Below are positions 33,444-61,058 of a stretch of 64,000 nt of DNA, in pieces (the first letter of the stretch is position 1; every line of letters begins with the position of its first letter). A program made the translations under genes and the position numbers. The notes beneath the pieces are model-generated. The model did no database searches. It saw only the letters and a program-made list of their open reading frames with translations, and was not told the DNA's origin. Source of the stretch: Escherichia coli (GTDB lineage Bacteria; Pseudomonadota; Gammaproteobacteria; Enterobacterales; Enterobacteriaceae); the NCBI RefSeq assembly GCF_044324785.1, contig NZ_CP172127.1; one strand, 5' to 3'.

Positions 33444-33794
33444 GTTTTTGCGAGGAAGGGGAGTTAGAGACAGGAATTGCGGAGGCAATCACATAATCGT
33501 GGTTAAACCACGAAAATGAGAAGAGAACCTGACAATGGAATTATCTGTAATTTTCTCATATTGATATTTCATTAATCATTCTGGCATGTCGCACTCTCGC
33601 TTTTAATCGTTTTTATCTGGATAGCGCTCTTTTGGTCGGCAATGTTGAAATAATGAAAGCGGCACAGATTGAGGGGCAATAATTTGAACTCAGTCGCAAA
33701 ATTATAATTAAAACGGTCATGCTACCTAATATATGCCCGTTTATTGCATCGCGAAATTTGAGAAGACATAACTCATTAAATGAAAGGGATGCAA

Positions 33795-35714
33795 ATGAAT
33801 AAGTTTATCGCTGCTGAAGCTGCGGAATGTATAGGCTGTCATGCTTGTGAAATTGCCTGTGCGGTGGCACATAATCAAGAAAACTGGCCGCTGAGTCACA
33901 GTGACTTTCGACCGCGTATCCACGTTGTAGGGAAAGGCCAGGCTGCGAATCCGGTGGCCTGCCATCACTGCAACAATGCTCCTTGCGTTACGGCTTGTCC
34001 GGTTAATGCTCTGACTTTCCAGCCCGATAGCGTACAACTGGACGAGCAAAAATGTATTGGTTGTAAAAGATGCGCAATCGCTTGCCCCTTTGGCGTCGTT
34101 GAGATGGTCGATACGATTGCGCAGAAATGCGACCTTTGTAACCAGCGCAGTTCCGGCACGCAAGCCTGTATTGAAGTCTGCCCAACACAGGCGTTACGGC
34201 TGATGGACGATAAAGGGTTGCAGCAGATAAAGGTGGCCCGCCAGCGCAAAACGGCAGCAGGAAAAGCGTCATCAGACGCTCAGCCATCTCGCAGTGCAGC
34301 GTTGCTCCCCGTTAACTCGCGTAAAGGCGCAGATAAAATTTCAGCGAGTGAACGGAAAACCCACTTTGGCGAAATTTATTGCGGGCTGGATCCACAACAA
34401 GCGACTTTTGAGAGTGACCGCTGTGTTTATTGCGCCGAAAAAGCTAACTGCAACTGGCATTGCCCGCTGCATAACGCTATTCCGGATTACATCCGTCTGG
34501 TGCAGGAAGGAAAGATTATTGAAGCGGCAGAACTTTGCCACCAGACCAGTTCCTTGCCAGAAATCTGCGGCAGAGTTTGCCCACAGGACCGTCTTTGTGA
34601 AGGCGCATGTACTTTGAAAGATCACTCTGGCGCAGTCTCTATCGGGAATCTGGAACGCTACATCACCGATACCGCGCTGGCGATGGGCTGGCGTCCCGAT
34701 GTCAGCAAAGTTGTTCCCCGTAGCGAAAAAGTGGCGGTGATTGGCGCAGGGCCTGCAGGGTTAGGGTGTGCTGATATTCTGGCGCGCGCAGGAGTTCAGG
34801 TTGATGTCTTTGATCGCCATCCAGAAATTGGCGGTATGCTGACTTTTGGCATACCTCCTTTCAAACTCGATAAAACGGTATTAAGCCAGCGGCGAGAGAT
34901 ATTCACCGCAATGGGAATCGACTTTCATCTTAACTGTGAAATTGGCCGCGATATTACCTTTAGCGATTTAACTTCTGAATATGATGCAGTTTTCATCGGC
35001 GTGGGGACTTACGGGATGATGCGAGCAGATCTGCCGCATGAAGATGCGCCCGGTGTCATTCAGGCTCTACCGTTCCTGACTGCCCATACCCGCCAGCTCA
35101 TGGGGTTGCCGGAGTCTGAAGAGTATCCGCTGACGGATGTGGAAGGTAAGCGAGTCGTGGTATTGGGCGGTGGCGATACGACCATGGATTGTTTGCGGAC
35201 TTCCATCCGCCTCAATGCCGCCAGCGTGACCTGCGCGTATCGTCGTGATGAAGTCAGTATGCCGGGCTCGCGCAAAGAGGTGGTCAATGCGCGCGAGGAA
35301 GGTGTTGAGTTTCAGTTCAATGTTCAGCCGCAATATATCGCTTGTGACGAAGATGGGCGTTTAACTGCGGTGGGCCTGATTCGTACAGCCATGGGTGAGC
35401 CGGGGCCGGATGGTCGCCGTCGTCCTCGTCCGGTAGCGGGTTCAGAATTTGAATTGCCCGCCGATGTTCTGATTATGGCCTTTGGTTTCCAGGCGCATGC
35501 CATGCCGTGGTTGCAGGGCAGCGGAATTAAACTCGATAAATGGGGCCTGATTCAAACCGGTGACGTTGGGTATTTACCTACCCAGACGCATCTGAAAAAA
35601 GTCTTTGCTGGTGGTGATGCAGTTCATGGCGCGGATCTGGTTGTCACTGCAATGGCCGCAGGAAGGCAGGCGGCGCGCGATATGTTAACTCTGTTTGATA
35701 CGAAGGCATCGTGA
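33795..35714 (+). CDS. ygfT: AegA-like oxidoreductase: N-terminal 4x[4Fe-4S] ferredoxin domain fused to GltD-like FAD/NAD(P) domain, 639 aa
   Basis: Four CxxCxxCxxxCP motifs; dinucleotide fingerprint [21 protein letters not shown]; start at third ATG of ORF 33780..35714. Confidence 0.85.
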
Positions 35715-36202
35715 TGAAATCGTTAATTATCGTTAATCCGGCTGACTGTATTGGCTGCCGTACTTGTGAAGTGGCCTGTGTGGTCGCTCACCCTTCAGAA
35801 CAGGAGTTGAATGCCGATGTCTTTTTACCCCGGCTGAAGGTACAGCGACTGGACTGCATCAGTGCGCCGGTGATGTGCCATCAGTGTGAAAACGCCCCTT
35901 GTGTTGGCGCTTGCCCCGTGGGAGCGCTGACGATGGGCGAGCAGGTGGTGCAGGCCAATTCTGCCCGTTGTATTGGCTGTCAGAGTTGCGTCAGTGCGTG
36001 CCCGTTTGGGATGATAACCATTCAGTCGTTGCCGGGGGATACCCGGCAACAAATTGTGAAATGCGATCTCTGTGAACAGCGGGAAGAGGGGCCTGCCTGC
36101 GTTGAATCTTGCCCGACACAGGCGCTGCAGTTGCTTACTGAAAGAGAACTCAGGCGAGTCCGCCAGCAGCGTATTGTTGCCAGCGGTGAGAATCCTCTCT
36201 GA
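35714..36202 (+). CDS. ygfS: 4x[4Fe-4S] ferredoxin-type electron-transfer protein, 162 aa
   Basis: Four Cys clusters ([55 protein letters not shown]); start overlaps ygfT stop. Confidence 0.85.
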
Positions 36203-38974: not shown

Positions 38975-40375
38975 TTAATCCATCTCTTCCGCTGAGGTAA
39001 TACCAGGCAGAACGTTTTCCTGTCGGTAGCCACCAGGGAGGATAATATTTAATAAAATCGCAGTTAACCCGCCAGCACAAATAGGGTTTTCAACTAGTAC
39101 ATAAATAGAGGCTGGCAATATTTTAAAAATTTCGGGATCGTAGGAGACGCCAAGCCCTAAACCTAAAGAAGTGGCGACAATAAGTGTTTCTCGGCGCTTT
39201 AAACCGTTGGTGATGATGATGCGAATCCCTGCGATGGCAATCATGGAAAACATCAACGTCATTGCGCCTCCCAGAACTGCCGAGGGAATGGTCGTGAAGA
39301 AGCCGCCAATCATCGGAAACAAACCGAGGATAACCAGCATTACCGCGATGGTTCGCCCGACATAACGTGAAGCGACGCCAGTCATCTGAATAACCCCATT
39401 ATTTTGCGCAAACGTGGTTAAGGGTAATGAACCGACAGCGGAGGCGATAACAGAAACCAGACCATCTGCCAGCACGCCGCCTTTCAGTCGGGACTGATAC
39501 TCTTCCCCCTGAATGGGGCGGCGAGAAACCATTGCCGTGGCGGTGATATCGCCGACAGCTTCCAGCACGCTAAGCAAATAAATCGTGCCAACCACCAGGA
39601 ACTGATGGAAGCTGAAACTAAACCCGTATTTGAACGGATGCGGGATGGTGATTAACGGCAAATTGCGCATACTGCTGAAATCCACCATACCCAGGCATAA
39701 CGACGCGATATAACCGACGCATAGCCCAATGGCGATCCCTCCCATGCGTAGCAACGGACTGCGACAGCAGTTAAAGCCGATCACCACAATCAAAACCAAT
39801 AAACCAACGCCGAGATGTTCGTAATTGCCGAACGTACCGCTGCTTTTGGCTGCAAATCCTCCACCAAAATCGATAATGCCGACTTTAATCAGGCTTAAGC
39901 CGATCATCAGTACCACAATACCGCTGACAGTAGGCGTAATAACCCGACGTAAATAGGGCAGGATAAAAGAAGAGCCGACAACCAGAAATGCGCCAACGAA
40001 GGAGACGCCGAAGAGCGACGACATGATTAACTCTTCGTGAAAACCGTCGCTTTTCATGCTGCTGCCCAGCGCAATCATGACCGTAACAAATGAAAAATTG
40101 ACTGACTGAATTGAGAGAAGACCAGAACCGACGATGCCGTAGCGGTTTACTTGTAACCAGGTACCAATACCAGAGGCGATCATCGCCATAGAAACCAGAT
40201 AAGCGGTTGTTTCAGCGGAAAGCTGTAAGGCCGCACCCACGATTAACGCGGGGGTTACCATCGGAACGAAAATTGCCAACAGATGGGTAATGGCACCAAC
40301 GAGAGCCTGATGAAAGGGAGGGCGATCCTCCAGTTCAAATATAAGGTCAGAACCTGCATGGTTTATATCAGACAT
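38975..40375 (-). CDS. xanQ: NCS2-family xanthine permease, 466 aa
   Basis: ORF 38975..40588 trimmed to ATG at 40373-40375 with AGGAG RBS (MSDINHAGSDLIFELEDRPPFHQAL). Confidence 0.9.
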   Translation of the reverse strand: MSDINHAGSDLIFELEDRPPFHQALVGAITHLLAIFVPMVTPALIVGAALQLSAETTAYLVSMAMIASGIGTWLQVNRYGIVGSGLLSIQSVNFSFVTVMIALGSSMKSDGFHEELIMSSLFGVSFVGAFLVVGSSFILPYLRRVITPTVSGIVVLMIGLSLIKVGIIDFGGGFAAKSSGTFGNYEHLGVGLLVLIVVIGFNCCRSPLLRMGGIAIGLCVGYIASLCLGMVDFSSMRNLPLITIPHPFKYGFSFSFHQFLVVGTIYLLSVLEAVGDITATAMVSRRPIQGEEYQSRLKGGVLADGLVSVIASAVGSLPLTTFAQNNGVIQMTGVASRYVGRTIAVMLVILGLFPMIGGFFTTIPSAVLGGAMTLMFSMIAIAGIRIIITNGLKRRETLIVATSLGLGLGVSYDPEIFKILPASIYVLVENPICAGGLTAILLNIILPGGYRQENVLPGITSAEEMD

Positions 40376-40499
40376 CCCTTCACTCCTTTTAAAGTAAATT
40401 TGATCATCTGAATCAGTAAAATAAATTCCCACGAATTTGGGGCGCAGGACGCCTTGAGAACGGCTTATCTCATTTTCGCAGTCACTATTTAGTCGTCGT

Positions 40500-40530
40500 T
40501 CAAACAGAGAAACAGGCCGCCGAAGCGGCC
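40500..40530 (-). terminator. hairpin GGCCGC-cgaa-GCGGCC just downstream of xdhD stop, U-rich tail on minus strand
   Basis: Inverted repeat read directly; possible partial terminator before xanQ. Confidence 0.4.
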
Positions 40531-40539
40531 ATTTATTAT

Positions 40540-43410
40540 TTATATTTTTTCTAGCGCGGTGAGTATTTTCTCCGGTGTGAAATGCCATTCGCGTAACCAG
40601 ATGCCGCAGGCATCGTGAATTGCGGTAGCAATCGCCGGAGCTGCGCCATTTACACCGATTTCCGAGATCGATTTCGCCCCGAACGGGCCGACTTTATCGT
40701 CGCTCGGCACCAGCACAGCGCGGAAATCACGCGGAATGTCACCAATTTTCGGTGCGCCGTAACTGCGTAAATCACGCGTTAACGGGTGACCTTCGGCGTC
40801 ATAAATGATCTCTTCGCTCATACTGTGGCCGATAGCTCGCAGGGTAGCACCGTAGATTTGTCCCAATGCTAATTCCGGGTTGACCGGTGTACCGCAGTCC
40901 AGCAAGGCGTAGAATTTATCCAGGCGGATTTCACCCGTACGCGTATTGACGGCAACTTCAGCGAAGTTCGCGCCATACGGGAAGGCGAAATCAGGCGTGA
41001 TATAACTGCCAGTTCCCACCAGTGAACCAAAGCCGGTGCCGGTTTCGCCTTTATGGGCAATATCCCCGAAACTAACTTCGCCTTTCTTGCCGCGAACGAC
41101 GCCCGGCGTTGCTAGTTGAACATCTGCCACTGGCTCACCCAACATTTGTGCACCGTGGAACAGAATTTTCTCCCGCAGATTTTCTGCTGCCAAACGCGCC
41201 GCGTTACCCGAGAAGCAAGTACCGGACGAGGCATATGCGCCTTTATCAAACAACGCATGATCGGTATCACCGGAGATAACATGCACGTCCTGCGGTGGGC
41301 AGTGCAGCACTTCTGCTGCCAGTTTCGTCACCACAGTATCCAAACCAGTACCAATATCCGCACCGCCAGAATGAACGATAAAGGTGCCGTCCGATTCCAG
41401 TTTGATCATGCAGTTAGCCTGATCGATATCCGGGATCCCTGATTTCTGCATGATAATGGCGACGCCACGACCGATGTGCCAGTCACCGTTTTGTGGTTTT
41501 GGTGAAGACCATTGGATCATCTCGCGACCCTGACGCAGGATCTCTTCCAGTGCGCAGCTGGCGGCGGAAGGAACGGAGGTCGGCGCTTTACCTTCACCGA
41601 TTGCACCGAGAATTTTCAGCTCTTGCCCTTCGTGTACCCGGTTACGTTCGATAATTTCCAGTTGGTCGATCTGTAACTGTTCAGCCAGTTCCGCTAATGC
41701 CATGGTGATAGCGAAGTTACCTTTCGGTGCGCCATAACCCTGATAAGCACCATTTGGGCAAATGTTGCTGTAGTAGGTGGTGACCTGAAAATCGACGTTA
41801 TCGCACGGATATAACGGCAGCGACAGCGCCGGTCCGTTACACGGTACGGTGAGTGAGTGGTTGCCGTAAGGGCCAGTGTTGGCGCGGAAATCCATCTTCA
41901 CTGCCGTCAGGCGACCATCTTTTTTCGCTCCCAGTTTGACGGTGACTTTCGCGACGTGACGAGAGGTGTTAGCAATAAACTCTTCTTCACGGGTGTAGCG
42001 GAACAGTACCGGACGCCCGGTCACGCAGGTTGCCCAGGCGCACACTTCTTCCAGCAGGATGTCCTGTTTGGAACCAAAACCGCCGCCAACTCGCTCTTTA
42101 ATGACATGAACTTTATGCTGTTTCATGCCCACGAGGCGCGCGACCTGGCGGCGTAAGTGCCATGGTACCTGGGTGGAGGCGTGGATAACCAGACGATCGC
42201 CGTCCATACGGGTAAAGCAGATATGAGTTTCAGTCGGGCACTGCTGCGCCTGCGTTGAGTTATAGGTTCGCTCAATGATCACATCGGCATCGGCAAAGCC
42301 TTTGTCCATATCGCCGATATGACCATGAATACTGGCGGCGATATTTTTACGGGGGCGAGAACCGATCGGGAAGTTGATGATCATATGCTCGCCGCGCTGG
42401 GCTGCATGGCTGTTATCGTCTTCCAGAGTATCTGGCGCACCAGCAACATACACCACCGGTTCATCGTGCACGACAGGCGCATCTTCCGCCATTGCTTCGT
42501 CGATCGACATTACAGGTTTAAGCACTTCATATTCAACGTCGATGAGCTTCAGTGCTTCGAGCGCAATTTCTTCACTTTCTGCGACGACCGCAGCAACGCG
42601 ATCGCCGACGTGACGCATTTTCTTGCCGAACATACGGCGGTCAAGCGGTGACGGTTCCGGTGCGCTCTGACCGCCCGGGGTATAGTAGATATCCGGGCAA
42701 TTCAGGTGAGTAATAACGTGAACAACGCCCGGTAAGGCTTCAGCTTTGCTGACATCCAGATGAGTAATCAGTGCGTGAGCGTGTGGGCTACGTAACATTT
42801 TAATGACGCAGGCGTCAGCCGTTACGCGGTCTTCAACATAGCAGGGTTTCGCCTGCACCATTTTCGCGGCATCAGTTTTAGGATAATGCTTACCAATGAC
42901 TTCAAGGTCATCGCGGAAAGTTGGAGCTATATCAATGGTGGCCTGCGGATTATTTTTACGTGCAACCGCCAGTTCAATGACCTGATAGTATTGTTGCCAG
43001 CCTGCATCGCGGCTGAACAAACCAGAAAGCGCGTCGTCGATCTCTTCGCGGGTCGGTGCGGCAATGCGATCGAGAAGATCGGTGATAATCAGAGCCGCAG
43101 CTGGATCGTTATAACCAGACTGCACCACGCCAACATCAACCATTGCCTGTTGAACCAGACTTAACTCGTTCCATTTGCCCAGAGACTCTGCGGTACGAAT
43201 ATCTGCCTTCTCTAACTGTGCGGCGATAAGCAAGGACGCGTTAACGATATTACCGTTACAGATAATTGCGTCAGAACCGGCAAACCCGAATCCATCATCG
43301 CTGTTGCGTACAGAGTGCATTCCCATGTTAAACAACAGCTTTTGCACGTTTTCGCCTGGATTAACGGTTAGCTCCTGAGGCGCGCCATTTAAAGTAAAGT
43401 GGATGATCAT
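40540..43410 (-). CDS. xdhD: xanthine-dehydrogenase-family molybdopterin subunit with N-terminal degenerate (cysteine-less) 2Fe-2S-like domain, 956 aa
   Basis: Full ORF; N-terminal 150 aa align by eye to XdhC but lack its Cys motifs; large Mo-binding body. Confidence 0.85.
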   Translation of the reverse strand: MIIHFTLNGAPQELTVNPGENVQKLLFNMGMHSVRNSDDGFGFAGSDAIICNGNIVNASLLIAAQLEKADIRTAESLGKWNELSLVQQAMVDVGVVQSGYNDPAAALIITDLLDRIAAPTREEIDDALSGLFSRDAGWQQYYQVIELAVARKNNPQATIDIAPTFRDDLEVIGKHYPKTDAAKMVQAKPCYVEDRVTADACVIKMLRSPHAHALITHLDVSKAEALPGVVHVITHLNCPDIYYTPGGQSAPEPSPLDRRMFGKKMRHVGDRVAAVVAESEEIALEALKLIDVEYEVLKPVMSIDEAMAEDAPVVHDEPVVYVAGAPDTLEDDNSHAAQRGEHMIINFPIGSRPRKNIAASIHGHIGDMDKGFADADVIIERTYNSTQAQQCPTETHICFTRMDGDRLVIHASTQVPWHLRRQVARLVGMKQHKVHVIKERVGGGFGSKQDILLEEVCAWATCVTGRPVLFRYTREEEFIANTSRHVAKVTVKLGAKKDGRLTAVKMDFRANTGPYGNHSLTVPCNGPALSLPLYPCDNVDFQVTTYYSNICPNGAYQGYGAPKGNFAITMALAELAEQLQIDQLEIIERNRVHEGQELKILGAIGEGKAPTSVPSAASCALEEILRQGREMIQWSSPKPQNGDWHIGRGVAIIMQKSGIPDIDQANCMIKLESDGTFIVHSGGADIGTGLDTVVTKLAAEVLHCPPQDVHVISGDTDHALFDKGAYASSGTCFSGNAARLAAENLREKILFHGAQMLGEPVADVQLATPGVVRGKKGEVSFGDIAHKGETGTGFGSLVGTGSYITPDFAFPYGANFAEVAVNTRTGEIRLDKFYALLDCGTPVNPELALGQIYGATLRAIGHSMSEEIIYDAEGHPLTRDLRSYGAPKIGDIPRDFRAVLVPSDDKVGPFGAKSISEIGVNGAAPAIATAIHDACGIWLREWHFTPEKILTALEKI

Positions 43411-44186
43411 ACGGCTTCCTCCCCAGCCTGTTGGCAGTCGGCATACAGGTCGGCTACCAGAACTCCCGTGATATAGCGTTTATAGGCCACGCTGCCCCGC
43501 AAATCTTCCTGCGGGAAAATGGCGTTGGCGACAGCCTGTTCAAGTGCATTGCCTTCCAGATTTTGTTTTTCAACATCGTGCAGACGCAGGGCTTTACTGG
43601 CGACGCCATCCAGCGCAATTCGCATACCGTCGTGGTCTGTCATTGCAACGGCTGCCGTCACGACGGTTAAACCTGCCTGAGAACGGCTAATTTTGCGGGT
43701 CGCACAGGTGCGATACGGATCTTTAATGATAATTTCGGTTAGCAGGCGATCGCATGGGCAGGCCAGGTACTCTTCGATTGACAGTGTTTCGCCATTGCCA
43801 AAAACCAGTTCAGCATCCAGTGCCAGCAGGACGGGAAGCAGCACAGACTCTTCCTGCCGGGCGGCGATTTCACCACCAATGGTCGACTGATTACGAACAT
43901 GGCGAGAGTAGACAAAGCCGAGGGCTTCACGCAGTGCTGCAGGAATAAATCGCGCATCACGCAGTGGCTGCAAGCGAGACATTGCGCCAATCCGCAGTGC
44001 ACCGTTATCCCAGTCAACCCAGTCCAGTTCCAGATCCTGTAAGGAAATGGCAATCTTTTTATCGGTACGGGTTGGTGTAGCGTTGAGTTTGCTGCCCCCG
44101 GCGAACCAGACGGCTTCATCCTGGTAGCGGCGCTTCAGTTCCAGCGCCTGTTCGACAGAGTCGGGCCTGAAAAATTGTTCAATCAT
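43407..44186 (-). CDS. ygfM: FAD-binding subunit (CO-dehydrogenase flavoprotein-like) partner of XdhD, 259 aa
   Basis: Full ORF; 4-nt overlap with xdhD start; FAD-binding fold AVWFAGGSKL. Confidence 0.8.
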   Translation of the reverse strand: MIEQFFRPDSVEQALELKRRYQDEAVWFAGGSKLNATPTRTDKKIAISLQDLELDWVDWDNGALRIGAMSRLQPLRDARFIPAALREALGFVYSRHVRNQSTIGGEIAARQEESVLLPVLLALDAELVFGNGETLSIEEYLACPCDRLLTEIIIKDPYRTCATRKISRSQAGLTVVTAAVAMTDHDGMRIALDGVASKALRLHDVEKQNLEGNALEQAVANAIFPQEDLRGSVAYKRYITGVLVADLYADCQQAGEEAV

Positions 44187-44236: not shown

Positions 44237-45565
44237 TTATGCCAACGCATCCATCCGACGCCACATACTGGCAGCGGCTTTTCTGGCTTGCGCATAAATG
44301 GAATCGCAATCGAAGTTAAACTGACGGTCTTCATAGACCATCACGCCATTGACCATCACGCTATGAACGCTGCCTGAGCCCATACCGAAAGCGATATGCC
44401 CGGCGATATTGTCTGCCAGCAGCGGTGTCGGCGAGTTGTAATCGCAAATGGTTAAATCGGCTTTGTAACCGGCTTCCAGAAGGCCAAATTTCGCGCCAAA
44501 GTTGCGGCTCATCAGTTCGTTGCCGTTAGCCAGTGCTTTGGCAAAACTGTCAGGCCACAGCGGACCACCCGCATCGCGATGTTTAAAGAAGGCAAATTTC
44601 ATCTCTTCAAACATGTCCGAACCAATGCCGTCCGTTCCCAACGCCAGATTGCGGATGTCGCTAAGGTGATGGTTGTAGCCGACATGGTTGTTCATGTTTG
44701 AACGGGCGTTATGCACCAGGAACGCATCGCGCTGATTGAGTAGGGCGATGTCATCTTTCGACAAGTACAGCCCATGAGCGACCAGCGTTTTGCTGTCGAT
44801 GAGATCGAATTGCGCCAGTCGTGCCAGCAGGTCTTTGCCGTACCAGTGGTGACTGTAGGAAACGTCATAAAGGTCTTCCGCAGCGTGAATATGCAAACCA
44901 CGACCTGTGGCTTTCACGGCTTCACGCAGCATCTCCAGACCGGCATCCGGCACGGTAAACGGCGCGTGAGCGCCGATATGTGCTTCCACCAGATACGGCT
45001 CGGTTGCTGCTTTCTTCGCCTCATCAATCTGACGGGCGAAGCGGATGTTTTCTTCTACACCTTCCTGCAACTCTTTGATGCCGTTGTTACGGTCAGTAGT
45101 TTCAAAACAGGTCATCGCGCGCAGGCCAACTTTTAAAAATGCGTTGCGCAATGTGGAGAGCGACCCGCCGATATACGCCGGAGAGGCATGGTGATCGATA
45201 ACCGATGTACATCCGCTCTTAATTGCTTCCAGGGTACAAATCAGTCCGCTGTAATAGAGCGACTCTTCATCAAGGGCGCGATCGAGTCGCCACCAGAGAT
45301 TTTTCAGCGTTGAGATGAAATCCGGGCAGGGGGCGATGTTTGCCATAATTCCGCGGGACAGCCCCGAGTAAAAATGGTTGTGCGAGCAGACAATTCCCGG
45401 CATCACAATCCGACCATGCATCTCTTTGTAGCTGGCATCGGGGTAGCGTTGCGTCAGGGCATCGCCGATAGCGACAATCACATCATTTTCGATGGCGATA
45501 TCAACGCCTTCCTGCACTTTCGCCGGGTGTAACTGCACTGCGGTGACATTCTTCAGAATCAACAT
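44237..45565 (-). CDS. ssnA: amidohydrolase-superfamily hydrolase (chlorohydrolase/aminohydrolase-like), 442 aa
   Basis: Metal-binding HxH (VCSHNHFYSG); full ORF. Confidence 0.85.
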   Translation of the reverse strand: MLILKNVTAVQLHPAKVQEGVDIAIENDVIVAIGDALTQRYPDASYKEMHGRIVMPGIVCSHNHFYSGLSRGIMANIAPCPDFISTLKNLWWRLDRALDEESLYYSGLICTLEAIKSGCTSVIDHHASPAYIGGSLSTLRNAFLKVGLRAMTCFETTDRNNGIKELQEGVEENIRFARQIDEAKKAATEPYLVEAHIGAHAPFTVPDAGLEMLREAVKATGRGLHIHAAEDLYDVSYSHHWYGKDLLARLAQFDLIDSKTLVAHGLYLSKDDIALLNQRDAFLVHNARSNMNNHVGYNHHLSDIRNLALGTDGIGSDMFEEMKFAFFKHRDAGGPLWPDSFAKALANGNELMSRNFGAKFGLLEAGYKADLTICDYNSPTPLLADNIAGHIAFGMGSGSVHSVMVNGVMVYEDRQFNFDCDSIYAQARKAAASMWRRMDALA

Positions 45566-45567
45566 GA

Positions 45568-48500
45568 TTACACCTCCACGCGGCCCAGCAGATAATGATG
45601 ATGCTGGTGGACATGGCTAATGATGCGGCACATATCGTTCAGCTCCGGTGGTACGTTGTTGAACTGACCTTCGCTGTCGATGTTTAACACCCAGCTTTGG
45701 TTATTCAGACGTACTCGTACCCGGCAATCTTCCACAAGGAAGCCTGGGTTGCTGCTGTTATCAAAGTCTTGCGACAGGCTGAAGACGGTGATTTTGTCTT
45801 TGTACGGTTTACCGTTCCACGGACAGAACTGAGCGCAGTTGCCGCATTCGTTACAGTAAGCGTCGAGGTGCAGCGTCTGGAAACGGTTCTGGAAGCCAGG
45901 GACCGCAATGGAGACGTTGGCGCGGTTCGGGCAGACATCCACACACTTGCTGCAAACGTAGTTACATTCAAGGCAGCGAGCAGCTTCCTGCGCGACAAAC
46001 GCATCACGATCGTCACTGTTCACCAGCGTGATAGAGATATCGCCTTTACGTTGATAGATTTCCGCCGGATTGACGTTGTTCCAGTATTTATCGTTCTGGT
46101 GGGAACGGATATTTTCCCGACTAAGGATGGCATCGGTCGCCCGACGCGCGGTTCCGACAGCAGCGACAATGGAGGATGGTCCGCGCTGTACGTCGCCGAT
46201 CATAAAGACGTCAGTCAGACGAGTTTCGCCATTATGGTCGACGTCTGGCCAGCCGTTTTTGTCCAGCGGCACGCCCATCGCATTCAGGGCTTCAGTATCC
46301 TGCTGTTCACCAATGGCGGTGATCAGGCTGTCTACATGCAGTGTTACTGTTTCGTTGGTTTCAACCGGACGGCGACGACCTTTCTCATCAGGTTCGCCAA
46401 GCGACATAACGCGCAAGGTTAAGGTGCCATCAGCATCGAAACGTTCCGGATTATTCAGGAAACGGAACTCCACGCCGTCGTGCAACGCTTCTTCATACTC
46501 TTCGCGCCATGCTGGCATCTCTTGCAGTGAACGACGGTAAACGACCGTTGCTTTTTCTACGCCTGGAACGCGTAACGCCGCACGAGCGCAGTCCATTGCC
46601 GTGTTACCCGCCCCGACAACGACCACATGTTTGCCCAGCTTGAGCGCTGTGCCCTTGTTGTATTCACGCAGGAAGGGGAGTGATTTCCAGACATTTTGGT
46701 TGTCGCCCGCCAGTTTCACACCGCTATTTTTATCAGTGCCGGTGGCAATCAGAACATAGTGGAAGCCCTGATTTTTTAACTGTTCAACGGTCAAATCGGG
46801 TGAGCAGCCATACTCAAATTTCACGCCGTGAGCGGCAACAAAATCGATATCGTGCTGAATTAACTCTGCAGGAATACGGAACTGAGGAATGATATTTTTC
46901 ACCACGCCGCCCGCATTGGCTTCGCGTTCAAACAGCGTAACCGGATGGCCCGCTCTGGCAAGGAAGTAACCTGCTGCCAGACCCGCCGGACCTGCACCAA
47001 TCACGGCAACCGGATGGCGTGAACCAGAACCGGCTGGTTTGTGCCAGCGTTGCTTATATTCATCCCAACCTTTTTCCAGCGCGACTTTTTTCAGTTCGCG
47101 GATATTCAGCGCACTGTCGTAATCCAGGCGGGTACAGTTGTATTGGCACTGGTGATCGCAAATATGACCGGTAATGGCGGGCAGGGCGTTGCGTTGGTAG
47201 ATGAGTTCCAGTGCGTCGGCATAGCGGTGTTCGCCAAGCAGACGGATGTATTCCGGAATATCCTGTTTAATGGCGCAAGCAGTAACGCACGGTGCAACGT
47301 AGCAGTCGGTCAGCGGCAGGTCTTCTGCCACTTCAATACGCTCTTCTGGCTTCCAGTGTTTCTGAGTGTATTCCATGGTTAACGCGTCTGCTGCCAGTTT
47401 GTTCAGTCGTTCGACGTCAACATGGTCAAGCCCCCAGGCGTCGGAGCCTTCCAGCTCGCGCATGCAGGCACTTAAGCGCAGATAGCCGCCAGGTTTCAGC
47501 AGGTCGGTTGCCATCGTGATAGGGCGAATACCAGTATCAAAAATATCGCGGATAGTCAGCTGACTGGCACCACCGGAATAAGAAATGGGCAGTTTGCCGT
47601 CAAAGGCGCGAGAGAGAACTGCTGCAACATTGATGGAGAGCGGGAACAGCGCACGGCCTGACATATACATCTCTTCACCAGGCAGTGCGCCTTTATTGTT
47701 GATGGTGCCGAGAGTGTTAGTCAGTTTTACGCCAAAGCCGAGTGATTTTTCTTTTGCCAGTGCCATCAGACGTTCCAGCATTTCCAGTGCTTGCGTCAGC
47801 TTGAGGTCGTGATCAAATGACTCTTCTTTTAAGCCTATGTAACCGAAACCGCAGACATCGAGGATCTCACGAACACGCGCGTACCCCAGTAAGGTCGGGT
47901 TGAGTTTCACAAAGGTATTGAGCCCTTTTTCTTCCAGCATGTAGCGGCAAATGGCTTCGATTTCATGCGGAGGACAGCCGTGCATGGTGGAGAGGGTGAC
48001 GCCCTGCACCATGCTGGTGGGGATGCGAGCGGGTAAGGCTTGCAAGCTTTCGCGTTTTTCCTGCAATCCGTGGCGGGCTAAAAATGCGTCATCCTGGAGT
48101 AATTTATTCAGCGTATCGCGATATTGAGCGAATTTCGGATGGTCAGATGCGTCCATCATATTGTCGATGAACTGTTGCATCGGCGGTTGCTTAATACCTT
48201 CGAGGTTGTAACCGACGCTCATATTAAAGATGAACGATTTACCGGAATCAGAAGGCTGGAACATCGCTTCGAGAAGGTGCAGGGCAAACCAGGCTTTGAG
48301 GTATTCATCCCAGGCTTTAAGCAGGGTAAATTCGGTGGACCATTCGGTGTTAAAGCACTCGTCTTCGGCATCAATACAGGGCTTTTCCAGCTCCAGGCGG
48401 TCAAGAATTTGGACGGTTTTTAGTTCGATGAAGCGTCCGCCAGTCAGCCAGGAAGTGACAATATTTTGCGCGAGCTGCGTGTGCGGGCCAGCGGCAGGGC

Positions 48501-48666
48501 CGACGGGAGTGGCACAGGTTTCACCGAAGACGCTAACAGTTTTACCTTTTACGGGTGAGTAAAACTGTTGCTCGGGAATACCAAAGATTGAGCGTTGTTG
48601 TTGGTATTCATCAAATATGCGCGTCAAAAGTTCCTCAAACGGAATGGGACGCATAATATCCCCCAT
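45568..48666 (-). CDS. ygfK: large Fe-S flavoprotein oxidoreductase (GltD/dihydropyrimidine-dehydrogenase-like with 4Fe-4S clusters), 1032 aa
   Basis: Dinucleotide fingerprints [28 protein letters not shown] and VVVVGAGNTAMDCARAAL; ferredoxin motifs CLECNYVCSKCVDVCP and CNECGNCAQFCP; AGGAG RBS. Confidence 0.85.
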   Translation of the reverse strand: MGDIMRPIPFEELLTRIFDEYQQQRSIFGIPEQQFYSPVKGKTVSVFGETCATPVGPAAGPHTQLAQNIVTSWLTGGRFIELKTVQILDRLELEKPCIDAEDECFNTEWSTEFTLLKAWDEYLKAWFALHLLEAMFQPSDSGKSFIFNMSVGYNLEGIKQPPMQQFIDNMMDASDHPKFAQYRDTLNKLLQDDAFLARHGLQEKRESLQALPARIPTSMVQGVTLSTMHGCPPHEIEAICRYMLEEKGLNTFVKLNPTLLGYARVREILDVCGFGYIGLKEESFDHDLKLTQALEMLERLMALAKEKSLGFGVKLTNTLGTINNKGALPGEEMYMSGRALFPLSINVAAVLSRAFDGKLPISYSGGASQLTIRDIFDTGIRPITMATDLLKPGGYLRLSACMRELEGSDAWGLDHVDVERLNKLAADALTMEYTQKHWKPEERIEVAEDLPLTDCYVAPCVTACAIKQDIPEYIRLLGEHRYADALELIYQRNALPAITGHICDHQCQYNCTRLDYDSALNIRELKKVALEKGWDEYKQRWHKPAGSGSRHPVAVIGAGPAGLAAGYFLARAGHPVTLFEREANAGGVVKNIIPQFRIPAELIQHDIDFVAAHGVKFEYGCSPDLTVEQLKNQGFHYVLIATGTDKNSGVKLAGDNQNVWKSLPFLREYNKGTALKLGKHVVVVGAGNTAMDCARAALRVPGVEKATVVYRRSLQEMPAWREEYEEALHDGVEFRFLNNPERFDADGTLTLRVMSLGEPDEKGRRRPVETNETVTLHVDSLITAIGEQQDTEALNAMGVPLDKNGWPDVDHNGETRLTDVFMIGDVQRGPSSIVAAVGTARRATDAILSRENIRSHQNDKYWNNVNPAEIYQRKGDISITLVNSDDRDAFVAQEAARCLECNYVCSKCVDVCPNRANVSIAVPGFQNRFQTLHLDAYCNECGNCAQFCPWNGKPYKDKITVFSLSQDFDNSSNPGFLVEDCRVRVRLNNQSWVLNIDSEGQFNNVPPELNDMCRIISHVHQHHHYLLGRVEV

Positions 48667-60578: not shown

Positions 60579-61058
60579 TTACTTCGTTTTCTCGCAATCC
60601 AGAACTGTATTTACAATCATCTGATACCCCGTGCAGCGACAAAGATTTCCCGCCAGACCGCGACGAATTTCCGTAATGGTTAATGGCTTCTCGCGTGGTT
60701 TCGCCAACATTGCCGTGGTAGCCATAATCAGGCCTGGCGTACAAAACCCGCACTGCACCGCGCCGGATTTCGCATAAGCCTGCTGAACATGAGAAAGTTT
60801 TCCGCCTTTCGCTTCACCTTCCAGCGTGCGGATCTCTTTTCCTTCAGCCCAGGCGGCAAGGTATAAGCAACTGTCTATTGCTGTGCCGTCGACCAGCACC
60901 GTACAGGCACCACATTCACCCACGCAGCACCCTTGTTTGACACTTAACAGTCCTTGATCGCGGAGTAATTCCGAGAGCGGCATGCCTGGTGCGGCGTGAA
61001 GCTGAAAAGGCATCCCGTTAATGGTGCATTCGATGGTAATTGTTTCGCTGTGATTCAT
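60579..61058 (-). CDS. xdhC: xanthine dehydrogenase 2x[2Fe-2S] subunit, 159 aa
   Basis: [18 protein letters not shown] and CRCTGY motifs. Confidence 0.9.

Follow-up and report, generated by a model that had tools for sequence, protein, structure and literature searches.

The xdhD Locus and Its Domain Organization

The window considered here is the whole 64,000-nucleotide stretch of Escherichia coli DNA from contig NZ_CP172127.1 (assembly GCF_044324785.1), an E. coli-type chromosome segment that carries the purine/urate gene cluster in reverse orientation. The gene in question, xdhD (40540..43410, minus strand), encodes a 956-amino acid (aa) protein in which a pseudo-[2Fe-2S] domain is fused to an α/β-hammerhead and two molybdenum cofactor (Moco)-binding domains, as delimited by its open reading frame (ORF), Pfam, and TIGR03313. 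Its N-terminal domain resembles the iron-sulfur subunit of xanthine oxidase family enzymes and has no Cys at any of the eight cluster-ligating positions, and it is this domain, together with the electron path that it would normally carry, that is discussed below. The partner gene ygfM (43407..44186, minus strand) encodes a 259-aa subunit that binds flavin adenine dinucleotide, or FAD (Pfam FAD_binding_5, E = 1.1e-19, and CO_deh_flav_C; TIGR03312). The stop codon of ygfM and the start codon of xdhD overlap by 4 nt as ATGA (43407-43410, minus strand), which suggests that the two genes are translationally coupled. Logan assemblies hold a 1215-aa YgfM-XdhD fusion call with 43 member sequences, which is either a real fusion or an artefact of read-through or frameshift.

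The identity of both genes is clear from their NCBIfam scores. XdhD reaches 2119.9 bits against TIGR03313 (cut-off 1101.9) and YgfM 488.3 bits against TIGR03312 (cut-off 241.5). The DNA of xdhD was matched, and annotated as xdhD, in 5177 of 5426 complete E. coli genomes, and the protein of the window is approximately 100% identical to the main E. coli cluster. At the DNA level, at least 99% identity is seen with only three of the 5177 genomes (best: strain N3, 99.4%), the others lying between 95 and 99%, so the window derives from an E. coli lineage that is sequenced less often.

The N-terminal domain of XdhD has two halves, and all of the following features are on the minus strand. Residues 1-72 (43195..43410) form the β-grasp half, formerly the plant-type Fer2 domain that holds the FAD-proximal cluster (FeS II); this half aligns with residues 7-77 of XdhC, the canonical 2×[2Fe-2S] subunit of XdhABC encoded in the same window (60579..61058; NF007387, 341.6 bits; Pfam Fer2 and Fer2_2), and by Foldseek with CoxS and the nicotinate dehydrogenase small subunit (NDH-S). 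Within it, residues 33-47 (SVRNSDDGFGFAGSD; 43270..43314) are a remodelled version of the former C-X4-C-X2-C loop, with D38, A44, and D47 in place of Cys, and S59 (43234-43236) stands in for the fourth FeS II ligand. Residues 73-145 (42976..43194) form the four-helix half, formerly the Fer2_2 domain that holds the Moco-proximal cluster (FeS I) and still recognized by Pfam. Here, the former Q-C-G-F-C-T-P-G motif reads VQSGYNDPA (residues 96-104; 43099..43125), S98 and N101 having replaced Cys while Q97 is kept, and the former C-R-C-T-G-Y motif reads FSRDAGW (residues 132-138; 42997..43017), S133 and D135 having replaced Cys while R134 and G137 are kept.

The remainder of the protein is that of a xanthine oxidase family molybdopterin subunit, with all three expected domains present and constrained. 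The Ald_Xan_dh_C α/β-hammerhead spans residues 187-298 (42517..42852; Pfam E = 6e-31), and MoCoBD_1 and MoCoBD_2, which make up the molybdopterin-binding catalytic core, span residues 355-893 (40732..42348; E = 3.8e-72 and 6.4e-68). The equivalent of the catalytic Glu, E917 in the motif KSISEIG, is at least 90% conserved, although this equivalence does not come from a formal alignment to a solved active site.

Loss of the Cluster Ligands

An earlier, sequence-only reading of the window had proposed that the first ~150 residues of XdhD are a recognizable copy of XdhC in which every cluster-ligating Cys has been replaced. Both points are borne out, well outside what chance could produce. BLASTP of XdhD residues 1-180 against XdhC pairs the same segments, with 33% identity across 141 residues (E = 2e-21). 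In that alignment, XdhC C44, C49, C52, and C64, the plant-type C-X4-C-X2-C-Xn-C set of FeS II, fall opposite XdhD D38, A44, D47, and S59, and XdhC C103, C106, C140, and C142, the C-G-X-C-Xn-C-X-C set of FeS I, fall opposite S98, N101, S133, and D135, so that all eight of the ligand columns are changed. The same ligand map is reproduced when XdhD is aligned with the solved FeS subunits 3hrd_D, 4zoh_C, and 1t3q_A. The XdhD N-terminus matches 12 solved FeS subunits in all, the best being 3hrd_D (residues 1-154, E = 1.9e-16), followed by those of glyceraldehyde oxidoreductase, quinoline oxidoreductase, the aldehyde oxidoreductase MOP, 4-hydroxybenzoyl-CoA reductase (4-HBCR) gamma, and CoxS. Residues 1-150 are thus homologous to the family of XdhC, CoxS, and NDH-S and, judged by sequence, are descended from the 2×[2Fe-2S] subunit of xanthine oxidase family enzymes.

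Profile searches lead to the same picture. In XdhD, Pfam recognizes Fer2_2 (residues 73-145; E = 6.3e-12, 45.9 bits) but not Fer2; in the XdhC control it finds both Fer2_2 (E = 8.5e-26, 90.3 bits) and Fer2 (E = 9e-8). Against the equivalog models of XdhC, PucE, and others, XdhD scores far under the cut-offs (63.6 vs. 212 bits). An error of alignment, with canonical [2Fe-2S] clusters present after all, would agree with the names given to the protein in databases ("Mo/Fe-S-binding subunit," "[2Fe-2S] binding domain"). However, the independent alignments to XdhC and to the three solved FeS subunits agree with each other, and C51 is the one Cys within residues 1-189 of the window XdhD, a residue that most orthologues lack. 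This cysteine count is by itself enough to refute the idea, whose probability we put close to nil.

The term "cysteine-less," as used in the sequence-only reading, holds for all eight ligand columns and does not hold literally, since the window allele has C51 (43258..43260, minus strand). This residue aligns with XdhC V56 in a non-ligand column, and it distinguishes the window XdhD from the common E. coli allele as a rare F51C variant. Cys is found at this position in one of 120 listed 90%-identity cluster representatives, that cluster comprising 8,988 member sequences; in most listed E. coli and enterobacterial representatives the position is Phe, and in others Leu, Tyr, or Val.

Conservation and Selection

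To follow the domain beyond E. coli, one genome per species was scanned with the Cys-less motifs, which gave 336 relatives, and the best 80 of these were used. They come from Enterobacterales, Vibrio/Photobacterium, Aeromonas, Shewanella, Rhodocyclaceae/Propionivibrio, a Desulfobacteraceae metagenome-assembled genome (MAG), and Spirochaetes MAGs. All 82 of the orthologues compared lack Cys at every one of the eight ligand columns, the commonest pattern being DADS/SNSD, and in none of them has the N-terminal domain been deleted.

Within the Cys-less family, it is mainly the remodelled cluster loops that harbor the invariant residues. Among 25 aligned Cys-less homologues (with identity as low as 38%), V34, R35, S37, D38, G42, G45, S46, D47, Q97, and N101 are invariant, and D39, F43, S98, Y100, P103, A104, R134, and G137 are at least 90% conserved, R134 and G137 being invariant in a second alignment. 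The family shares a very strongly conserved acidic loop, SVR-x-SDD-xx-GF-x-GSD. Q97, R134, and G137 are non-ligand residues typical of canonical subunits that have been retained. Variation among the replaced positions is found at A44 (A/T/P), S59 (S/N/G), S133 (S/H/I/N), and D135 (D/A/S).

It could be imagined that a domain that has lost its cofactor ligands, and whose Pfam scores are about half of those of XdhC, is a functionless relic in the course of decay. The substitution pattern argues otherwise. In unsaturated pairs, the ratio of nonsynonymous to synonymous substitution (dN/dS) is 0.04-0.07 for the domain, and that of the Moco core is 0.02-0.03. Distant orthologues are 47-77% identical in the domain: where this value is 68-77%, the linker has 56-64%, and in the most distant phyla the domain still has 47-58%, on par with the catalytic domains there. 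In closer orthologues, identity in the domain is slightly below that in the catalytic domains. The XdhD N-terminal domain is under strong purifying selection, and the low dN/dS and conserved loops, in a module that is never deleted, mean that it is functional rather than decaying. The dN/dS values and per-domain identities effectively refute the relic explanation, to which only a very small probability can be given.

Predicted Fold and Placement

An AlphaFold2 model of the domain was built solely from Cys-less sequences (an alignment of 25 domains). It has a mean predicted local distance difference test (pLDDT) score of 82.9 and a predicted template modelling (pTM) score of 0.77, and it shows a β-grasp followed by four helices. 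The predicted strands of the β-grasp half are at residues 2-7, 10-15, 48-51, 54-57, and 70-72, with a helix at 22-28, and the predicted helices of the second half are at 85-93, 102-115, 121-128, and 138-153. Model confidence is lowest in the former cluster loops. When the model was compared with the PDB by Foldseek, the top matches were only 2×[2Fe-2S] subunits or domains from xanthine oxidase family enzymes, including 1n60_A (E = 1.2e-11), 3hrd_D (template modelling (TM) score 0.76/0.85), and 1rm6_C, and TM scores against CoxS, the nicotinate dehydrogenase small subunit, and 4-HBCR gamma lay between 0.73 and 0.86.

The full-length XdhD model (pLDDT 77.4) fits best on 1sij, the fused FeS-Moco chain of Desulfovibrio gigas MOP (TM 0.79/0.84, E = 6.9e-65). 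Moco-only subunits fit it less well (query TM 0.64-0.69 vs. 0.79), and for this reason the N-terminal module is predicted to sit at the usual position of the FeS domains. These models indicate that both the fold and the placement of the module are canonical. The proposal that XdhD keeps the fold and not the clusters is therefore supported computationally, with a family fold recovered from Cys-less sequences, eight ligands gone, and no motif to replace them.

YgfM and the Search for Substitute Ligands

The genomic association of XdhD with YgfM is invariable wherever upstream sequence is available: 80 of 81 loci have a ygfM homologue next to xdhD on its upstream side, and the other one is cut at the gene. 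At most loci, but not all, ygfK is within the ~7-kb flanks. YgfM aligns over its full length with CoxM-type flavoproteins and also matches 3hrd_C, and its AGG[ST] and T[IL]GG[EN] FAD motifs are invariant.

A replacement set of cysteines was sought in both proteins by conservation across the orthologues and distant members, and no compensating Cys motif was found in either XdhD or YgfM. YgfM has four Cys, of which C161 and C251 are conserved among the 81 loci. C161 is present in 76 of these and is largely conserved beyond the gammaproteobacterial orthologues, being replaced in one distant member that was checked, whereas C251 is usually absent from the distant members checked. YgfM also lacks the Cys4 motif or Cys-rich insertion of the [4Fe-4S] FAD subunits of the 4-HBCR and PaoB types. 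XdhD has 16 further Cys, of which only C619 is kept in distant members, and an alternative Cys4 cluster site in XdhD-YgfM was rejected since only C619 and, for the most part, C161 survive there. C619 itself (motif SAASCALE; approximately 41554-41556, minus strand) is kept in all distant Cys-less members examined, including spirochaete and metagenomic ones.

These data bear on the idea that the remodelled loops hold a different relay, either a carboxylate-ligated metal or a non-Cys cluster assisted by YgfM C161. The replacements are not random, with D38, D47, and N101 invariant and S37, D39, S46, and S98 invariant or nearly so; there are several carboxylates at each of the two sites; and C161 is largely conserved. 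To our knowledge, however, no Fe-S cluster with an all-O/N ligand set has been described. Four of the replaced positions, A44, S59, S133, and D135, vary, and a second Cys-less family, described below, shows STAD/SSDE instead. Model confidence is lowest in exactly these loops, and Cys is wholly missing from the actinobacterial FAD subunit. A new cofactor of this kind is therefore considered quite improbable.

A Graded Series of Cluster-Site Losses

The loss of cluster ligands is not confined to close relatives of XdhD. The classification set comprised the best 150 representatives at 50% identity found with the domain, of which 50 were too incomplete to be used. Among the 100 that were classified, 58 are canonical with Cys at both sites, 27 have no Cys at either site, 10 have lost the FeS II site alone (e.g., DTDG/CCCC), three have lost the FeS I site wholly or in part, and two show other patterns. 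A second Cys-less pattern, STAD/SSDE, marks a sizeable family in Acidimicrobiia, other Actinomycetota, and Anaerolineae/Chloroflexota, and the actinobacterial and chloroflexal search set also contains canonical members and the intermediates DTAD/CCCC and DTDN/SNDE.

A short FAD_binding_5 gene stands directly upstream of the fused gene in every genomic context read: that of the nearest canonical member, that of one FeS II-less member, those of two members with STAD/SSDE, and that of a distant XdhD-type member. In each FAD subunit translated from them, the FAD motifs that can be seen are kept; the actinobacterial one is the protein without any Cys referred to above. A neighbor-joining tree built on the 155-residue domain recovers the XdhD-type sequences as a monophyletic class apart from the STAD/SSDE class, although the tree is weak and covers the domain only. 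Independent origins of the Cys-less classes are not claimed, as the intermediate patterns make this tree indecisive. From their ligand patterns, the relatives are proposed to form a graded series that runs from canonical through FeS II-less to cluster-less forms.

A further member of this kind could exist in Borrelia burgdorferi. The locus bb_0554-0556 encodes BB_0555, a xanthine dehydrogenase (XDH)-like "iron-sulfur subunit" that could be another cluster-less pseudo-ferredoxin. The presence of an encoded "iron-sulfur subunit" in an organism with very low iron stores puzzled the authors who described it (PMC9993122).

The Reductive Urate Pathway and Related Enzymes

The reductive urate pathway was established by two studies in 2025 (PMC12507026; bioRxiv 10.1101/2025.04.24.650524), older papers having treated XdhD merely as an uncharacterised XDH homologue. 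E. coli XdhD supplied with nicotinamide adenine dinucleotide in its reduced form (NADH) converts urate to 2,8-dioxopurine (Life Metab 2025, PMC12507026). The protein co-purifies with a ~30-kDa protein, putatively YgfM, and the complex was modelled on the XDH of Rhodobacter capsulatus (1JRO); the assay was of the end-point type with 10 μM enzyme and 1 mM substrates, and no rates were given (PMC12507026). An AlphaFold3 interface pTM of 0.94 has been reported for XdhD-YgfM in a commentary (PMC12990295). The xdhD-ygfM pair of E. coli K-12 is the same gene in the same operon, with the same TIGR03313/TIGR03312 membership, and the published function thus applies to the window.

None of these sources appears to remark on the state of the clusters. 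A search for the relevant terms found no mention of missing cluster ligands in the text or supplement of PMC12507026, and the missing Cys are likewise unnoted in the pathway papers, the commentary, and the searchable literature, most subscription reviews lying outside the search. The annotation "Mo/Fe-S-binding subunit" takes no account of the missing clusters. While the gene and reaction are already known, the cluster-less, conserved module and the missing relay thus appear to have gone unnoticed in the literature searched.

The nearest functional counterpart is XdhAC of Clostridium sporogenes, a selenium-dependent 2,8-dioxopurine dehydrogenase (DOPDH) whose reaction is the same, urate <-> 2,8-dioxopurine (bioRxiv 10.1101/2025.04.24.650524). 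Like XdhD, it is a fused FeS-like and Moco polypeptide in the same pathway context. It is described, however, as having Fe-S-binding domains and no FAD domain or subunit, and it does not use NAD(P)H and is active with methyl viologen. E. coli XdhD is therefore its converse, with an FAD subunit present and the cluster ligands absent. Clostridial counterparts are distant in sequence, C. difficile XdhD being only 25.6% identical to that of E. coli (PMC12507026).

Among solved structures, nicotinate dehydrogenase of Eubacterium barkeri provides the best sequence match (3HRD_D) and one of the best folds (TM 0.76/0.85). It is a selenium-dependent Mo hydroxylase with a separate FAD subunit, as XdhD is paired with YgfM, but 3HRD_D has Cys at all eight ligand columns and XdhD at none. 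MOP of D. gigas (1SIJ/1VLB) shares with XdhD the fused layout of two FeS domains, linker, and Moco domains in a ~907-aa chain; it binds both [2Fe-2S] clusters and has no FAD subunit (PMC3958847), whereas XdhD has an FAD subunit and no cluster ligands. The 4-HBCR of Thauera aromatica (1RM6) is a xanthine oxidase family enzyme that works in the reductive, dehydroxylating direction, and its alpha and gamma subunits are strong fold matches to XdhD. The 4-HBCR FAD subunit has a Cys-rich insertion that bears an extra [4Fe-4S] cluster, and both of the enzyme's [2Fe-2S] clusters are still present. Unlike 4-HBCR with its added cofactor, XdhD-YgfM has lost clusters, and YgfM is short (259 aa) and without a conserved Cys4 set.

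Electron Transfer to the Mo Center

The electron path that defines the xanthine oxidase family is the chain Mo - [2Fe-2S] - [2Fe-2S] - FAD, an assumption that genome annotation extends to XdhD. With no cluster ligands, the canonical relay FAD -> FeS II -> FeS I -> Moco would be absent from XdhD-YgfM. The sequence-only reading had suggested that electrons leave the Mo center of XdhD through YgfM, YgfK, or YgfS. As for the partner, YgfM has since been supported by co-purification and by its presence in 80 of 81 loci; the direction has to be reversed, since XdhD works reductively on urate (PMC12507026) and electrons enter the Mo site. Naming YgfM nevertheless leaves a problem, as the lost clusters are the exact wire that joins the FAD subunit to Mo in every characterised relative.

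We consider it somewhat probable, at a little better than even, that residues 1-150 are a cofactor-free pseudo-ferredoxin scaffold and that electrons pass from NADH to the FAD of YgfM and from there to Moco with no relay between them. The helical half of the scaffold would complete the Moco pocket through Q97, R134, and G137, and the β-grasp half would still dock YgfM, while the side chains of D38, D39, D47, S98, N101, D102, and D135 might fill the former cluster cavities and hold the loops in place. It may be supposed, with modest confidence, that NADH still reduces the flavin of YgfM and, with similarly modest confidence, that electrons reach the pterin and Mo either in one long tunnelling step or by a gated approach of the flavin. 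The enzyme would then be a slow urate 6-dehydroxylase in vitro, with another donor possibly added in vivo.

The distances involved can be estimated from known enzymes. In bovine XDH and carbon monoxide dehydrogenase (CODH), Mo and FeS I are ~14.7 Å apart, FeS I and FeS II ~12.4 Å, and FeS II and the flavin ~8 Å. From these spacings, the edge-to-edge gap between flavin and pterin without a relay would be ~20-25 Å, over which the Moser-Dutton treatment gives about 0.01 to 1 electron transfer per second. Such a rate would be too slow for normal physiology, yet it would be compatible with an end-point product at 10 μM enzyme.

Several observations weigh against the scaffold as just described. The gap of ~20-25 Å exceeds the ~14 Å limit typical of physiological electron transfer, so that an enzyme in which the module is only a scaffold would not be kinetically plausible in vivo. 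That the acidic loop is so very strongly conserved could have a cause beyond packing, such as the binding of a metal or a role as an interaction surface. The FAD-proximal FeS II appears to have been lost first while the FAD subunit was kept, which is odd if FAD is the point of electron entry. No published cofactor analysis of XdhD-YgfM was found in the literature searched. Finally, the genetics of urate degradation in E. coli implicate formate, AegA, and YgfT.

The last of these points raises the possibility that the physiological donor is not the flavin of YgfM at all, and that YgfT/YgfS, AegA, YgfK, or a ferredoxin or flavodoxin reduces Mo, the NADH activity being a slow side path. Genetically, the formate-dependent degradation of urate in E. 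coli requires both aegA and ygfT, a role with which their NCBIfam names accord, and it has been proposed that AegA/YgfT carry electrons from formate dehydrogenase either to NADP+ or straight to urate. In the window, ygfT (33780-35714, plus strand), an Fe-S/NAD(P) oxidoreductase by ORF, annotation, and literature, and ygfS (35711-36202, plus strand), a Cys-rich protein annotated as a 4Fe-4S dicluster-domain protein, lie 4-7 kb from xdhD in the same purine cluster and are candidate alternative donors. The frequent presence of ygfK in the flanks and the fact that the C. sporogenes enzyme of equivalent function works with neither NADH nor NADPH point the same way. On the other hand, an external Fe-S donor would have to approach the pterin to ~14 Å, and in the models the pseudo-FeS domain appears to occupy that approach. 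The invariable neighbor of xdhD is ygfM, not ygfS, ygfT, or ygfK, with the FAD motifs of YgfM under selection, and NADH-dependent activity has been reported for the two-subunit preparation (PMC12507026). An alternative physiological donor is on balance unlikely.

A mechanism centered on Mo itself would avoid the missing wire. In such a ping-pong cycle, a reducing substrate (for instance, another purine or an aldehyde) would reduce Mo(VI) and urate would re-oxidise it, so that the enzyme acts as a transhydroxylase or dismutase and the FAD subunit is structural or regulatory. The loss of both clusters while the Moco core remains strongly constrained is what a wire-independent mechanism predicts, and the seemingly earlier loss of the FAD-proximal site fits as well. 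Mo centers of xanthine oxidase family enzymes are reversible, C. sporogenes DOPDH runs in both directions, and milk xanthine oxidase carries out an anaerobic purine dismutation that counts in favor of such a cycle. Against it, the FAD motifs of YgfM are invariant across phyla, which argues for a redox role, and no candidate co-substrate is known. Moreover, NADH supported product formation in vitro, although the available text of that report describes no control lacking NADH (PMC12507026). The ping-pong cycle is regarded as improbable, and the relay-free path through the flavin of YgfM as the better account, although this cycle and a different physiological donor are its two serious competitors.

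A broader proposal, held tentatively and with less than even confidence, is that XdhD/YgfM-type enzymes are a distinct class of molybdo-flavoenzymes that lacks an Fe-S relay and keeps both end cofactors. This class would comprise TIGR03313-like enzymes, here found in Proteobacteria, Desulfobacterota, and Spirochaetota, and would have a sister class, found in Actinomycetota and Chloroflexota; the intermediates that have lost FeS II only would mark the path to cluster loss. If this is true, an electron-transfer solution new to the family is needed, the options being a repositioned or mobile flavin, a relay in the acidic loops, or Mo-centered ping-pong with a repurposed FAD subunit.

These considerations have practical consequences. 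XdhD-YgfM, identified in 2025, is the entry enzyme of the gut-bacterial reductive urate pathway, which has a bearing on gout and which probiotic strains are being engineered to carry. The lack of an internal wire changes assay design, as end-point NADH assays at 10 μM enzyme cannot show a physiological rate, and it bears on which redox partner should be co-expressed in pathway engineering and on the wording of annotation. XdhD-YgfM also offers a natural system for asking how far a flavin and a pterin-Mo center can communicate without relays and how cofactor-binding domains are converted into scaffolds, with extant stepwise forms to compare.

Neighboring Genes in the Window

According to ORFs and annotation, the gene order of the cluster begins with xdhABC, ygeV, ygeW-dpaL (ygeX)-ygeY-hyuA-arcC (yqeA), yqeBC, and mocA and continues with ygfK-ssnA-ygfM-xdhD, xanQ-guaD-ghxQ, ygfS-ygfT, and uacT. 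Two further enzymes of the reductive urate pathway lie upstream of ygfM-xdhD on the same strand, namely ssnA (44237-45565, minus strand; ORF, annotation, and synteny) and ygfK (45568-48666, minus strand; ORF, TIGR03315, and synteny). At the window edge, an interrupted xdhA such as that of strain N3 was considered and rejected, as there is no evidence for it and the reading frame simply runs off the window. On the other side of xdhD, a 537-aa ORF (38975-40588, minus strand) that shares 49 nt with the 3' end of xdhD was rejected as a gene in its own right and is an over-extended reading of xanQ. In an annotated relative, xanQ (466 aa) starts 165 nt past the xdhD stop codon, which places the gene here at approximately 38975-40375.

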